Sequence record: MK977694.1
Reading direction: 5' to 3' (one strand)
Length of the DNA: 64,000 nt
From: Escherichia phage vB_EcoM-Sa45lw
The notes beneath the pieces were generated by a model that saw nothing but the letters and a program-made list of their open reading frames with translations, was not told where the DNA came from and ran no database searches. A program made the translations under genes and the position numbers. Shown one piece after another: positions 1-60,970 of the stretch (positions are counted from its first letter, which is position 1; every line of letters starts with the position of its first letter).

Positions 1-2178
1 TTAGGCCGCAAGGGCCTTCATAGTTTTAGCGATTTGGGAAACTTCATCATCACTTAAAGAGTTGCGATATCCGATGAAGTCGGAAACAATACGGAATTTC
101 TTGGTAAACTCAGCAACCATTTTATCACTGTTTTTTGAAGCATTATTTGATAATACATCAAAAAGATTAGTTACTGTCCAGATATCATGACCGATGGTAT
201 CTTTTCCACCATTAAAATATACACCGCGCAATGAACTAACTATATTAGCGAGTCGTGTATATTCTTCAGAAACTTCATCTGTACTGAAGTACTTCATCAT
301 AAAATCTAGCTCAGGATACTTGATAATTTTATCAATATATCGTTGAGCTGAACTTGAATAACCTACATACTTATCATAATCTACATCATCAAAAGCATCT
401 ACATATAAATCACGCAAAGCTTCAAAAATACATTGGCACTGACCGAGTTCTTTTACCTTTTTCTGTAAAAGCGGACGAATAACATAAAATTCATTAATGC
501 CAATAAGATTAGCCATACGAATCAAAATATTCATAGATGGATGACAAAGTGATGTAGTACCATCCATAGAGAAAATATCAGAACGATGCATATACGCTAC
601 ATAACCAGTAATTTCATCTGCTTCTGACGTAAGTGTAAATAGTTCCTCTTTTTCCCAGCGCCCATCTTTAATTTCAAATTTAAATGCTGTAGCAGCTTTA
701 GGACGAGGAGCTTTACTTTTAACTACCTTTGGAATATAACTTTTAACCAAAGCTTCAATTTCTGACAAATAGTGAATGTTAACTTCATCACTTTCAAACA
801 TCGCCATAATATCAGGGAGTAAATCAATCTGCGATTCTACTTCCGGATTAATAAACAGAAGACGCTCATTGTGATGAATATTCAAAGTGTTATTAAATTC
901 ACTATCATCTAACGCGTGTGCTAATCCACGGACAATATTAACACGATTTTTAATATTATCAATAACGATATTAATTTTTGTTGTATTAATACCAAACAGA
1001 CGATAACTTGATGCAACGGCTGAAGTTTCATGACTTTGCTTAATGCGTTTCAGTCGAGGGTCAAGATTTACTTCATACACCACGCCTGCATTACATAACT
1101 TACTGTCAGGTTCAAACATGCTCTGCATCTTCTTATATGACAGATTTTTAGTCGTGAATTTGACTGAATTACTAATCATATAATCTCGAGCAGAATAGCC
1201 CATTTTCATTAACTCGCGATACGTATGGCGAGGAGATGTAGATTCTTTAAATCGTTTTACATCTTCATTAAATGCTTTCTCACTAAGCTCTTTAACTCGT
1301 TCAATAATATTTTTACGAGTACGATCATCCAATGAAAGAGCTTCACGTGATGGAGCAATATCAAGTGAACCCATTGGAAACTTAATGTAATTCACTTCAT
1401 TGCGAATGCTTAGCCAGTTACGGTCTCTAATAACACCATCGATAGGATAAACAATACCGCCATAGATAGCATATAATCCACCACGATCAGGCCAGTATCT
1501 TTCTGGATTTACACCGTAATAATCATCAAAATCCGGAAAATAATCAATTTCACGGTCAAGACCATTAATAATAGCCAAATCTTTGAACGGTCGCATGATA
1601 TAAGAAACTTCATAAGCAAAGTTTCTAAAGTCTTTTTCTTCAACTGGAACTACGATTTCAATACCAGTTTTATCATCTGGACCCATTTCTTTTACGAATG
1701 TAGGTTTAATCTGTGGGCCATCACCATCCATGTAAGCTACATAACCACGAATTTCACCTTTATGATACGAAGTAATACTAAACGTATCAGTATAACTAAA
1801 CGGAGATTTAGAACCTAAACCAAATCCGCCAATGAAATCGTTAGATTCAGCCTTAGATGAACTGAAGTATGAATTATACAAACCAGGAGAATTATCATCA
1901 CCCTGAATATCAAAATCACTCATACCCGGACCAAAATCTCGGCAAACAAATCGTGGATCTAAACGTCCAGGAACTTGAATGATAAATTTTTCAGGATTTC
2001 CATTGAGAGCATGGGCATCAATCATGTTGGTAATCAATTCACGAACAACTGCGCGAATCTTATTTGTATACAAATCAGATGATAAGATTTTAAATACTTT
2101 AGGAGATGCTGTGATGCTAAATGCTTTTGATTTAGAACCATTACCAAGAATTGTTTCTTTTTCAGTGGTGATAATCAT
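1..2178 (-). CDS. rIIA: rIIA rapid-lysis/exclusion-sensitivity protein
   Basis: Complete 725-aa ORF, same length and map position as T4 rIIA; N-terminal GHKL-ATPase-like glycine-rich motifs. Confidence 0.92.
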
Positions 2179-13874: not shown

Positions 13875-14074
13875 GATTTATCACCATAGATGTCTCTCAT
13901 CAATTTAAGCGCTGAGCGTTCTAATTTCTTTTCTTTCTCAGCACTAATCATTGATTTCATCCATTCTTCCGATTCGTTCTGCATTTCTTTATTTGCTTGT
14001 TCAACCCAGCCATCATCAATATACATTGAGTTTGGTCGATTAAACCATTCAAATATTTTCTTTAGGACTTTCAT
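13871..14074 (-). CDS. hypothetical protein
   Basis: 67-aa ORF. Confidence 0.5.
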
Positions 14075-14534
14075 TCATTTTACCTAAAACAATAGTAGGA
14101 GCATCGTCAAATTTATGAATTTTTAGCAAATTTGGAGTTAATTTATTCCATAAAGAAGTAATAAAATATGATAGCGCAATTTCTTCCGCAATTATGAATT
14201 TATTTCCCTTATCTATTTTCCAGTCATGTACTGAATCATATGAATAGAAGGACAGCGGTTTATTGTTATAAAATGCTTCACCAACATCAATATAGTTAGA
14301 TTTAGTAAATGCTTGAATTGACGTAAATGGAGAATTTTGTACAGTTTCAATAATTCCGATCTTTTTAAGTTTTATTTCAACATCTTCTGGAACTGGCATT
14401 GAAATAAAATCTTCTACTAGATACATGCTATTGTCATATCTTTTGTCAATCATTACTGCTACAGTAATTGGAACATCCTTGACAAACGCCATACTAATAC
14501 TATTAATAAACATTTCAAACAAAATTGCTTCCAT
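14049..14534 (-). CDS. hypothetical protein
   Basis: ATG at 14534 with GAGGA RBS; track ORF starts at upstream TTG. Confidence 0.5.
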
Positions 14535-15446: not shown

Positions 15447-15454
15447 TATTTATA
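15447..15454 (-). promoter_or_regulatory. T4 late promoter TATAAATA
   Basis: Exact TATAAATA on minus strand about 30 nt upstream of soc ATG. Confidence 0.7.
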
Positions 15455-15456
15455 TC

Positions 15457-15597
15457 TTACAATTTAGCGGCTTTCCAGAGTTGTTCAATAATCTCTTGGT
15501 CTATTTCTTTAGTTATTTCATTACGTAATAAAGCAGTAAGGGCTTTCGCCCTTTTCTTATTCAACTTTTTGAGTTGACGCTTATTTAAACGAGCCAT
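15457..15597 (-). CDS. small basic protein
   Basis: 46-aa ORF; ATG overlaps gene 56 stop (TAATG). Confidence 0.45.
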   Translation of the reverse strand: MARLNKRQLKKLNKKRAKALTALLRNEITKEIDQEIIEQLWKAAKL

Positions 15598-16115
15598 TAA
15601 TAACCTCGGTCTTGACGAGCGAAGTTTTCAGCATTTTTCAGGTAATAAAGTTTAAAGATTTCTTCTGCTGTAAGACCAAGACCCTGGAACATATTCAGAA
15701 CGAAATGAAGAATATCAATCATTTCAAATTTAATTTCTAACTGGTCTTGCGGAGACAAATCAGTAATCAGAGTTTCACGACGTTCACCATGCTGCGACTT
15801 CCAAGGTTTCCATACAGCAGATGCGTCTTTTTCACCATTACTCATACCACCAAGAGAAGTCAGAAGTTCACGGAATTCATCATCAATATAATCTTTCTGA
15901 TTGCGTAGCCAATCAACAACTTCACCTGCAGTAGCCAAATCATCAGGATGACGGTTATATTCAGGTTTATCTTTAGCTAAACGAACCTGTAAAGATTTCT
16001 GCATATCAAGCATAACCTGCAGCGGGTCTTTTTCATCACCGAGAATATCCCAATATTCATTTTGAGCTTTATCAGCGCCTTCAATCAGTTGACTACATTC
16101 GTTAAAGTAAGCCAT
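15597..16115 (-). CDS. 56: dCTP pyrophosphatase gp56 (MazG-like)
   Basis: 172 aa from ATG at 16115, T4 gp56 size. Confidence 0.85.
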   Translation of the reverse strand: MAYFNECSQLIEGADKAQNEYWDILGDEKDPLQVMLDMQKSLQVRLAKDKPEYNRHPDDLATAGEVVDWLRNQKDYIDDEFRELLTSLGGMSNGEKDASAVWKPWKSQHGERRETLITDLSPQDQLEIKFEMIDILHFVLNMFQGLGLTAEEIFKLYYLKNAENFARQDRGY

Positions 16116-16149
16116 TATTTTTCCTTTCAATTCATGGGTTAGTAGATTA

Positions 16150-16173
16150 ATTATACAATAAATATATAAAGCA
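16150..16173 (-). promoter_or_regulatory. middle promoter (MotA box TGCTTTA, 11 bp, TATAAT)
   Basis: Minus strand TTGCTTTAT then TATAAT about 35 nt upstream of gene 56. Confidence 0.6.
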
Positions 16174-16186
16174 ATAAGGAGGACAT

Positions 16187-16387
16187 ATGGTACAAAAATT
16201 AATGGCACTTGTTAATGCCATCAAAGGTAATAAGAAACGTATAGCTTTTACTATTTCTGCTATGGTAGGAATTTTACTCTGGAACTTTATTCTATCACCT
16301 GTTGCAATTGCACATGGTATTAATATTCCAGTAGTTACTCTTGATACATTTGTAGATTTAGCATTTGCTTTAGTTGGGTTAATTTAA
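16187..16387 (+). CDS. small hydrophobic protein on opposite strand
   Basis: 66-aa ORF; AAGGAGG 4 nt upstream of ATG; no recognised promoter. Confidence 0.4.
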   Translation: MVQKLMALVNAIKGNKKRIAFTISAMVGILLWNFILSPVAIAHGINIPVVTLDTFVDLAFALVGLI

Positions 16388-17412
16388 ATCTTAGCATATT
16401 TAGATAACCGCATTTTAGCCATTAACCCTTGGGCAATATTATTTTTCATATATTCCATAATTTGTTCAGGGGTTGCACCTTCCTTTCTAATCATATCATT
16501 GACGTCTTTTGATTTCCAGGGAGATTTATCCCAAAACATAACCCTTTCTCCTGCATCAACTAATTTAGTCATTCGTTTGATAGTGTCAGAGTGACGAGGT
16601 TCATTATCTAAGACCCACACACGCCTATCTTTAAATGGAACAACTTCTAGGTCTAATTGACCACCCGTAATAGCTATACCATTTTCAATAAAAAGTGAAT
16701 CTATAGGTCCTTCTAGAACATATACATCGCCATCTTTAACTCGTTCGACTCCATATATTTTTGTTGCCTCAGGATAAGCTTTAATGGTGATATATTTTTG
16801 AGGAGCATCTTTCTTTAATGCACGTCCTTGAAAAGACTCAGCTTTTCCATTAGCATTATAAATTGGAATAACAAGACGAGGCTCAGAAATTTCCTTTTTG
16901 TATGTTCCCGGTGCTATGCTATTAACTAATTTAGGCCATTCGGTTGTAAACCAAAGATATTTCCATTTATCCTTTGGAATACAACGAGCTTTTACATATT
17001 TTATAATTGGATGGTCTTCCGCCAGTTTATCTAATCTAACACATGACGGAAGAGATTTAATTATTTTCTTCTCAGGTTGTTTAGGAAGTTCTTTAGGTTT
17101 TTCTACTGGACGACTTTTACCTTTTTCTTTTCTTATTTCAAAGATATACTCACGATATAAATCAGGTTCAAACTCCTTTAAATATATTCCGATTGGTGCG
17201 TGATAGTTACAGTTATAACAATGAATATTTCCTTCATTATTATCACCATAATACCATCCACGAGCTTTATTCTGATCGGTTTTTGAATCTCCACAAACAG
17301 GACATCTAAACCGCAATTTAAAAGTTGAACTATTATTTACTTGTGTGAATTTAGGTAAATGAGCTAATGCACGATACGCAAACTCATTATCAATCCAAGG
17401 TATTGATGACAT
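16384..17412 (-). CDS. 61: DNA primase gp61
   Basis: 342-aa ORF, T4 gp61 length; N-terminal zinc ribbon. Confidence 0.92.
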   Translation of the reverse strand: MSSIPWIDNEFAYRALAHLPKFTQVNNSSTFKLRFRCPVCGDSKTDQNKARGWYYGDNNEGNIHCYNCNYHAPIGIYLKEFEPDLYREYIFEIRKEKGKSRPVEKPKELPKQPEKKIIKSLPSCVRLDKLAEDHPIIKYVKARCIPKDKWKYLWFTTEWPKLVNSIAPGTYKKEISEPRLVIPIYNANGKAESFQGRALKKDAPQKYITIKAYPEATKIYGVERVKDGDVYVLEGPIDSLFIENGIAITGGQLDLEVVPFKDRRVWVLDNEPRHSDTIKRMTKLVDAGERVMFWDKSPWKSKDVNDMIRKEGATPEQIMEYMKNNIAQGLMAKMRLSKYAKI

Positions 17413-17414
17413 TT

Positions 17415-17579
17415 TTACTCTTCTTTTTCTTTAGATTCCTCTTTCTTCTTTTTAGGAATCTGTTCAGGACCTTTATTTACTACAGCGCCTGACGTTGTTC
17501 CAGTAGAGATATTTTCAGGATTACCACCTGAATCTCCAGCTACCATATCTTCTTTAATAAATTCTTTATATGTTTTCAT
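17415..17579 (-). CDS. small hypothetical protein
   Basis: 54-aa low-complexity ORF between 61.1-position gene and primase. Confidence 0.4.
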   Translation of the reverse strand: MKTYKEFIKEDMVAGDSGGNPENISTGTTSGAVVNKGPEQIPKKKKEESKEKEE

Positions 17580-17580
17580 A

Positions 17581-17937
17581 TTAACCTCTATTCATAAAAG
17601 CATTAAAAATTTGGTCATCAATAGATGGCACAGTAATATTTTCTGCATCATTTAGCAAATCATTAATTTCATCAGATAGCATAACACATGTGCCTTTATT
17701 TCCTGTAATTGTTACTGCACAATTACGAACGTTTTCTTTATCAAATTTTAGGTTAATATTTTCGTAGTGAAAATCCTTTAATGCCGAATATATCTTTAAA
17801 ATGAAATTGTCTTTTACTACAATAAACCCAACCTCACTATTAAAACGTGGTTCATGGAAACTGTAATAAACCTTTTCATCTATAAAATCGTATGAAATTT
17901 TTTCCATTTTTAAATATGAAAATTCAGAACTATACAT
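17581..17937 (-). CDS. hypothetical protein (61.1-position)
   Basis: 118-aa ORF; C-terminal DDQIFNAFMNRG shared with next ORF. Confidence 0.55.
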   Translation of the reverse strand: MYSSEFSYLKMEKISYDFIDEKVYYSFHEPRFNSEVGFIVVKDNFILKIYSALKDFHYENINLKFDKENVRNCAVTITGNKGTCVMLSDEINDLLNDAENITVPSIDDQIFNAFMNRG

Positions 17938-17938
17938 A

Positions 17939-56380: not shown

Positions 56381-56593
56381 TCATTTTTGTCCTGTATTTA
56401 CTTTATGCCGATGCACGGCCTTAACTTTATCAAGGTATTTTTCAAAATTTCGCAATCTAGTATAGTCTGCCGGAGATTGGTTGAGTGATACTTCTCGACG
56501 CAAAGCTGAAATGATATTTCCAACTTCCCTACGAATTTCATCTAATTGAAGCACAGTAAGATTGCGAAGTTGCTTTTCAGTTAATTGTAGCAT
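56381..56593 (-). CDS. hypothetical protein (rI.1-position)
   Basis: 70-aa ORF. Confidence 0.5.
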
Positions 56594-60608: not shown

Positions 60609-60970
60609 TACAAACTCTCAGTAAAGGTACGAGCGATAACGTCGCGCTGCTGTTCCGGAGTCAGAGAGTTAAAGCGAACTGCATATCCGGATACACGGAT
60701 GGTCAGCTGCGGATATTTTTCCGGATGCTTAACTGCATCTTCCAGAGTTTCGCGACGCAGAACGTTAACGTTCAGGTGTTGACCACCTTCAATTTTAACT
60801 GTAGGCTGTGGCTCAATTTCAATTTCACGGGCATGCAAACCATAGAAAATTTCTGGGTCTACAAAAGAGTCCTCTTTAAAGGTTTTAGAAACGATAATTC
60901 GTGCTTGAATACCATCTTCAAAATAAATAGTACCTTTATGTGTGCCTTCAAGAATTTGATATGCTTTCAT
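60608..60970 (-). CDS. GrcA/YfiD-like autonomous glycyl radical cofactor
   Basis: 120-aa ORF; C-terminal half matches the E. coli GrcA/PflB glycyl-radical domain incl. [13 protein letters not shown]. Confidence 0.8.

Follow-up and report, generated by a model that had tools for sequence, protein, structure and literature searches.

Why should a part of a T4-like phage genome that is otherwise read from the minus strand hold a single open reading frame (ORF) on the plus strand, and does this ORF represent a gene? The question arises in Escherichia phage vB_EcoM-Sa45lw (MK977694.1), of which one stretch of 64,000 nucleotides (nt), in the following called the window, was analysed. The window represents the left ~64 kb of an AR1/wV7-like Tequatrovirus, with phages CAM-21, wV7 and AR1 as closest relatives (97.5-98.5% identity over positions 15500-17500). 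An earlier annotation made from the letters alone, here called the original prediction, had pointed to a lone plus-strand ORF with a strong Shine-Dalgarno (SD) sequence between gene 56 and the primase gene 61. We confirm this observation as a whole. Of its interpretation, the ORF, the SD sequence, the isolated position, the opposing MotA promoter and the membrane nature of the product stood up, while the assumed lack of a promoter, the two transmembrane (TM) helices and the status as an unlisted ORF did not, and the link to oriA appears to be one of adjacency. The explanation we consider best, and hold with good confidence as a whole, is that of a genuine T-even gene which is expressed late and codes for a single-pass inner-membrane protein.

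The ORF starts with ATG, extends from 16187 to 16387 on the plus strand and encodes 66 amino acids (aa) plus stop, MVQKLMALVNAIKGNKKRIAFTISAMVGILLWNFILSPVAIAHGINIPVVTLDTFVDLAFALVGLI. It lies, as had been described, in the 268-nt gap between gene 56 and the primase gene (16116..16383), and its end overlaps the stop of the primase gene by four nt, with both stops in TTAA. The SD sequence TAAGGAGG at 16175..16182 (+) ends 4 nt ahead of the ATG, which bears out the near-consensus ribosome binding site (RBS) of the original prediction. An SD of the GGAGG type (AGGAG in Mosigvirus) stands ahead of every family member examined. The isolated position is equally clear: wV7 is collinear over its first 50 kb, and of the 93 coding sequences (CDS) annotated there the ORF under study is the only one with plus-strand orientation.

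Judged by its pattern of conservation, the ORF is a real, conserved protein-coding gene. The frame is open over ~190-220 nt in at least nine genera at 20-55% protein identity. Between genera, the proportion of synonymous differences (pS) reaches 0.57-0.81, near or at saturation, versus a proportion of nonsynonymous differences (pN) of 0.30-0.37. Within Tequatrovirus, variable sites are distributed 7/2/12 over the three codon positions, and a variant with an in-frame deletion of three codons (A0A482MZV5) occurs in one phage. An alignment of 33 diverse members shows no change at W32, N33 and P38 and hardly any at G44 and P48. An ATG-initiated ORF of at least 66 aa appeared in 30 of 5000 dinucleotide shuffles of the gap (0.6%).

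A different picture is given by another plus-strand ORF of 65 aa, located antisense to srh at 13890..14087 and listed as ar1_027 in AR1 without a database match. It has neither an SD nor a late-promoter box and, in contrast to the ORF at 16187-16387, looks spurious.

How could a plus-strand gene be transcribed at this site? The comparative evidence that the ORF carries a T4-type late promoter is strong, if short of proof. The octamer AATAAATA at 16157..16164 (+), 22 nt ahead of the ATG, is a variant of the T4 late-promoter consensus TATAAATA (positions -13 to -6). Transcription would start at approximately 16170, and the predicted +1, an A, gives a 17-nt leader that includes the SD. T4 late promoters require no -35 element. 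The T4 late promoter has been described as just TATAAATA at -13 to -6, with a poorly conserved T at -13 (PMC1524935), and 50 listed T4 late-promoter sites comprise 32 perfect ones and nine with A at -13 as the commonest variant (PMC2988020). The polarity of the ORF points in the same direction. Early and middle transcripts of T4 all run counter-clockwise, either polarity being found only for late transcripts (PMC2988020), and thus a clockwise gene in this region is expected to be late. The ORF is on the clockwise (+) strand, a polarity allowed only to late transcripts, and from the sequence we strongly infer its late expression. The original prediction had recognised no plus-strand promoter and assumed read-through; this point has to be revised in view of the box at 16157-16164 and its equivalent in all genera examined.

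The distribution of the core heptamer ATAAATA in the window is informative as well. With seven copies versus 42 +/- 7 expected, it is six-fold depleted. The copies are located at 15447(-), 16158(+), 43244(-), 56619(-), 60923(+), 63468(-) and 63864(+), and five of the seven stand 22-31 nt ahead of an SD, an ATG and an ORF, namely those of soc, the ORF under study, the endonuclease VII gene 49, a 70-aa ORF and the lysozyme gene e. Gene starts of this kind follow 2% of window positions, so that five out of seven would be met by chance with P ~7e-8. The window has 34 plus-strand ATG-ORFs of 60 aa or more, and only the ORF at 16187-16387 combines a strong SD with an upstream ATAAATA. The T4 late genes that lie within the early region (soc, gene 49 and e) are comparable: here, too, a late box occurs 22-31 nt before SD and ATG, and the heptamer is otherwise avoided. 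Gene 49 (gp49) of the window even carries the same AATAAATA variant. In contrast to the studied ORF, which is on the plus strand and convergent with the primase gene, these three genes are on the minus strand like their neighbours. Unlike theirs, the box of the studied ORF lies within a middle promoter directed the other way, and late transcription of the ORF is suggested by sequence.

Two further observations concern the remaining heptamers. Those at 60923(+) and 63864(+) are not followed by an ORF and oppose minus-strand genes; they could be antisense late promoters. The 70-aa ORF at 56384..56593 (-), a member of phrog_1826 (unknown function), has a perfect TATAAATA 25 nt upstream together with an SD and is probably another small late gene in the early region.

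An equivalent box is found 15-22 nt before the ATG in every genus sampled, although the flanks and the upstream neighbour differ. It reads TATAAATA in Marfa, Q7622 and CIP9, AATAAATA in the window, RB69, JS98 and PKO111, GATAAATA in T4, CATAAATA in DK-13 and PEi26, and ATTAAATA in CGG4-1 and CF1. The situation in T4 is instructive: an inserted dam separates the ORF from the gene 56 promoter there, and GATAAATA is kept as the ORF's own box. Transcription in T4 would start at ~17722-17724. The T4 leader, ATAAATATTAATTTAAAGGAGGA, is nearly identical to the leader of JS98; the JS98 protein is only ~20% identical. A structured 5' leader that would mask the SD was considered and rejected (fold z-score 0.44). 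As to direct transcript mapping, a differential RNA sequencing study of T4 at 4, 10 and 20 min reports 150 transcription start sites, 22 of them antisense (bioRxiv 10.1101/2024.04.04.588121).

The ORF is less novel than it first appeared. The original prediction had treated it as unlisted; it is already present as a hypothetical protein in AR1 (ar1_033), wV7 (YP_007004774, 'similar to RB32ORF030w'), RB32 (RB32ORF030w), RB69 (RB69ORF029w) and hundreds of other records. These are orthologues of the ORF, all belonging to phrog_2024, on the same strand and at the same place between genes 56 and 61, and there is no difference in kind between them and the window's copy. The phrog_2024 profile ('unknown function') matches the ORF over its full length (E = 1.4e-31, residues 2-66 on profile positions 1-65 of 65) and is matched by 12 out of 12 diverse relatives. 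RB69ORF029w was counted among the 'novel ORFs', i.e., those without a T4 counterpart, by Nolan et al. 2006 (PMC1524935). Yet T4 has an orthologue at 17738..17938 (+), between dam and 61, which is 97% identical with two substitutions, A25T and I45V. It is intact in the records NC_000866 and AF158101, where nothing is annotated in the 310-bp dam-61 gap, and the records of JS98 and PEi26 likewise leave the gene unannotated. The gene is therefore catalogued as hypothetical in relatives and overlooked in the T4 reference. What we add here is the T4 orthologue, the synteny throughout the Tevenvirinae, the division into two subfamilies (in tandem in Gaprivervirus) and the conserved late-promoter box. 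The literature searched for locus names, the dam-61 interval, T4 ribosome profiling (Ribo-seq) or unannotated ORFs contained nothing about this gene.

Its conservation among T-even phages, proposed earlier as a check, is extensive. A tblastn search gave matches to the ORF in 692 phage records; coverage was >=80% in 686, and identity >=90% in 502. A primase at least 95% identical to that of the window occurs in 501 records, which means that within Tequatrovirus the ORF accompanies the primase essentially one-to-one. In at least nine genera the gene occupies this place, with plus-strand orientation and convergent with the primase: Tequatro-, Mosig-, Gapriver-, Dhaka-, Kanagawa-, Gelderland-, Jiaoda- and Moonvirus, plus Marfavirus. 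Across these genera the 3' end of the primase gene is the constant neighbour, usually with overlapping stop codons, while on the upstream side gene 56, dam or various hypothetical genes are found. An interruption of the ORF in close relatives would have spoken against a gene; it is intact in all but one of ~25 loci that were read directly. At the primase site of Krisch-, Slopek-, Pseudoteven-, Lazarus- and Biquartavirus the ORF is absent, and a co-oriented gene directly follows the primase and leaves no room. A presence beyond the Tevenvirinae was rejected on the basis of these five other Straboviridae genera, and the gene thus looks like an acquisition of the Tevenvirinae (plus Marfavirus).

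Profile searches covered 1.84 and 5.8 billion proteins. An exhaustive hidden Markov model (HMM) search with a profile of type a against the 1.84 billion representatives gave seven matches, and a wider profile gave 87. All matches are short proteins except for one spurious match to a protein of 1,822 aa (E = 3.5e-4), and none is credibly named. Where contigs were long enough to judge, the matches were located on phage contigs of T4 size (~160-175 kb).

A particular situation was found in Gaprivervirus, which has two tandem diverged paralogues, one of type a (as in T4/RB69) and one of type b (as in JS98/Marfa). In the numbering local to one such locus, the copies are at 1495..1692 and 1701..1901; at another locus the stretch concerned is about 1747..1872. 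The copy nearer to the primase gene has been cut short in DK-13, where a homing endonuclease is inserted, and is broken in TH40. Two copies were likewise seen in ESCO47.

What kind of protein would be made? The earlier claim of membrane character holds, as a conserved TM span is predicted at residues ~19-42. AlphaFold2 models show helices at residues 2-11, 15/16-42 and 52-63 (pLDDT, the predicted local distance difference test score, was 78 and then 83 with an alignment of 33 sequences). The cluster KGNKKR (codons 13-18, 16223..16240, +) is basic and predicted to be cytoplasmic. It is followed by the single conserved TM helix (codons 19-42, 16241..16312, +), supported by AlphaFold2, hydropathy and alignment and containing the invariant W32, N33 and P38. 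Codons 43-66 (16313..16384, +) form a predicted periplasmic tail, with a loop carrying G44, P48 and an acidic residue at 53, then a short amphipathic helix (52-63). The Kyte-Doolittle hydropathy (KD) of the best 19-residue window is 1.7-2.7 across the family. In every member, four to seven K/R residues flank the TM on its N-terminal side and zero to one on its C-terminal side, and by the positive-inside rule we predict a single-pass inner-membrane topology with the N-terminus inside and the C-terminus outside. The C-terminal flank has a net charge of 0 to -2 and ends hydrophobic in all members. A single TM at 21-41 was also predicted for RB69ORF029w by Nolan et al. (PMC1524935).

The two hydrophobic helices of the original prediction are indeed present in the sequence of this phage; as a family trait, only the one at ~19-42 is retained. 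We rejected a second TM helix as a family feature, since the hydrophobicity of the C-terminal helix is variable (KD 0.57-2.13) and its ~12-15 residues are too short to span the membrane. A polar Asn is known to drive the association of TM helices. That an invariant Trp-Asn pair occupies the core of the protein's single TM helix, followed by a Pro five residues further on, suggests that this helix is an interaction surface and not a mere anchor.

The opposite strand of the same interval is also occupied by signals. Gene 56, encoding the dCTPase / NTP pyrophosphohydrolase (15597..16115, -), is the divergent neighbour, and gene 61, encoding the DNA primase gp61 (16384..17412, -), the convergent one. 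The window phage has no dam between genes 56 and 61. Between soc and gene 56 there is a 46-aa ORF at 15457..15597 (-), a member of phrog_14392 (unknown), where T4 has the homing endonuclease segF. A MotA-type middle promoter of gene 56 is located at 16150..16173 (-), with the MotA box TGCTTTA at 16173..16167, in full TTATTGCTTTA, an 11-nt spacer and the -10 element TATAAT at 16155..16150. This agrees with the general pattern, in which (a/t)(a/t)(a/t)TGCTT(t/c)A precedes a sigma-70 -10 element TAnnnT by ~12 bp. The pattern is enriched in the window (17 matches vs 4.9 expected), and the GenBank record of fPS-90 has a predicted middle promoter annotated at the same place. At the level of sequence the gene 56 middle promoter is real, and it adjoins the SD just as had been noted before.

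The late box AATAAATA is located inside the spacer of this middle promoter, both promoters thus falling within 24 bp. Simultaneous occupancy of the two looks unlikely.

A terminator-like hairpin of 11 pairs (stem 16224..16199) followed by TTTTT is present at 16189..16224 (-), inside codons 5-13 of the ORF. It is annotated as a terminator in fPS-90 and probably terminates gene 61 transcripts. The hairpin was found only in Tequatrovirus, where codons 5-13 would be under the dual constraint of coding and hairpin formation. A role of this minus-strand terminator as the cause of ORF conservation was rejected, as RB69 and JS98 have the ORF but lack the hairpin. An Rfam search over 15900-16800 returned nothing.

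The suggested association with oriA holds only in part. According to the T4 record, oriA maps to 16763, within gene 56 and 22 nt from the 5' end of that gene, and the T4 ORF is ~975 bp away, beyond dam. When T4 and the window are aligned, the oriA position falls at ~16093, about 95 nt off the ORF. The association would therefore be one of adjacency in phages without dam and not of a shared element.

Putting these elements together, we propose the following course of events for a gene that would be alone in running clockwise through an early/middle region of counter-clockwise genes. RNA polymerase carrying gp55/gp33 and activated by the gp45 clamp would start at ~16170 from AATAAATA, and the 17-nt leader ahead of the 66-aa frame would carry a near-perfect SD. 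A middle and a late promoter would thereby stand back to back in the 24 bp from 16150 to 16173. Over 2.2 kb downstream of the ORF no plus-strand terminator was found, so that the late RNA would continue antisense into the 3' part of the primase gene 61. The product would consist of an amphipathic N-terminal helix (2-11), the basic KGNKKR, the TM helix (19-42) and a periplasmic tail of ~24 residues with Gly44, Pro48 and the acidic position 53, and its TM helix may contact itself or a partner membrane protein. As to function, a late-phase envelope accessory factor is our low-confidence guess, with lysis timing or lysis inhibition as the leading candidate.

Several points weigh against this explanation. 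The box is never a perfect TATAAATA in Tequatro-, Mosig- or Gaprivervirus, and the ATTAAATA of Gelderland- and Moonvirus has two mismatches. The HMM of Nolan et al. called no late promoter before RB69ORF029w (PMC1524935), and the in vivo strength of variant late promoters is not established (PMC2988020). The lysis idea is speculative, and neither t, rI and rIII nor the spanin genes lie close to the gene. Nor did domain and fold comparisons provide a functional clue: Pfam and NCBIfam gave no match to the ORF, Pfam on 12 diverse members gave only chance TM-like matches (E >= 0.014), a profile search of the PDB gave chance TM matches (E >= 0.14), and a Foldseek comparison of two AlphaFold2 models with BFVD and PDB returned family members or generic TM helices at E > 2.

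Among the alternatives, the one that survives best, improbable as we consider it, regards the RNA as the main product. A late clockwise transcript antisense to the primase 3' end would lower primase expression or mark the mRNA for decay, and the ORF would be secondary. The constancy of the primase 3' end as a neighbour, with stops that usually overlap, and the lack of a downstream plus-strand terminator are in agreement with this, and transcription of both strands, each at its own time, is known from several sites of the T4 genome (PMC2988020). Such an RNA, however, needs no intact ORF, no strong SD and no conserved residues, and all three are kept despite near-saturated synonymous sites. Moreover, in DK-13 a homing endonuclease parts the surviving copy from the primase, and Gaprivervirus has two tandem coding copies. 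A cis-antisense effect on the primase is a possible additional role of a gene that primarily encodes a protein.

A holin or pinholin-like lysis protein appears still less probable. The product is small, membrane-spanning and probably late, it has the at least one TM domain expected of a holin (residues ~19-42), and family members have been named 'Holin' (A0A482MZV5, UniRef) and 'holin family protein' (one GenBank record). Holins, though, have a charged C-terminal tail and linkage to lysis genes, and the ORF product has neither: the charged hydrophilic C-terminal domain is missing, the C-flank having 0-1 K/R and a hydrophobic end, and the neighbours are dCTPase and primase instead of endolysin, spanin or t, with the lysozyme gene e ~47 kb away. 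Only one TM is conserved, no Pfam holin family matches, and PHROGs assigns the family to unknown function. T4 t-null mutants do not lyse, and hence no second self-sufficient holin is expected. The names themselves look like automatic labels. Family members are mislabelled as 'DNA packaging ATPase', 'dCTP pyrophosphatase' or 'Holin' in some GenBank and UniRef entries, the phages being UPEC01, SAKp28, vB_YenM_P8, CGG4-1/SEA1 and OE5505. We found no support for any of the three labels, 'Holin' failing on the C-terminal tail and the genomic context.

The expression mode of the original prediction, i.e., early or middle expression by read-through or from an unrecognised sigma-70-type plus-strand promoter, is very unlikely. 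One weak sigma-70-like match exists at 16089-16118 (+), with 9 of 12 positions. A sigma-70 promoter on the plus strand was rejected, as the six matches found are no better than in shuffles (4.2 +/- 2.0). Early and middle transcription of T4 is all counter-clockwise (PMC2988020), there is no upstream plus-strand gene from which read-through could come (one of 93 CDS, as given above), and a conserved late box is present instead.

That the ORF is no gene at all, and that the interval is conserved for its minus-strand signals (gene 56 promoter, gene 61 terminator, proximity of oriA) with the frame as a by-product, is hardly credible: the middle promoter and the terminator-like hairpin do overlap the 5' region of the ORF and the T4 reference omits it, but the ORF outlasts the hairpin in RB69 and JS98, its frame is open in at least nine genera at 20-55% identity with W, N and P invariant, its substitutions fall preferentially on the third codon position, pN stays far under pS, and a chance ORF of such length is seen in 0.6% of shuffles.

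We therefore return to the late inner-membrane protein. Similar in size and location are T4 RI, T4 Imm and the pinholin S21-68, which are inner-membrane proteins that act via membrane or periplasmic contacts. They share neither sequence nor fold similarity with the ORF product; Imm and S21-68 have two TMs each versus one in the ORF product, and Imm is an early gene. The resemblance is to be taken as a lead, not as a result. In its most far-reaching form, which we advance tentatively and consider rather doubtful as a whole, the proposal would be that throughout the Tevenvirinae, including T4, the gene provides a late inner-membrane protein whose Trp-Asn...Pro TM face binds a phage or host partner and tunes lysis timing, lysis inhibition or late superinfection exclusion, and whose read-through RNA possibly damps the primase.

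For the biology of the T-even phages, the finding has several implications. T4 is the reference for the subfamily, and a gene missing from its records would be skipped by annotation-based screens, be it RNA-seq counting, proteomics databases or knock-down libraries. Tryptic digestion of the protein is expected to leave essentially one usable peptide, LMALVNAIK, next to a hydrophobic peptide of 48 residues, so that its absence from standard proteomics data would say little. The interleaved middle/late pair represents a compact case of two temporal classes on opposite strands of one 24-bp segment. The gene is at present a catalogued hypothetical protein and does not represent a new kind of system; it is a well-defined target for T4 genetics, and conservation throughout the Tevenvirinae, purifying selection and the late-promoter box make for a hypothesis that can be tested cheaply. 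Should its product prove to act on the envelope at late times, a gap in the picture of lysis or lysis inhibition could be closed, and, if the full proposal is true, the protein would be a new component in one of the best-studied phage systems.

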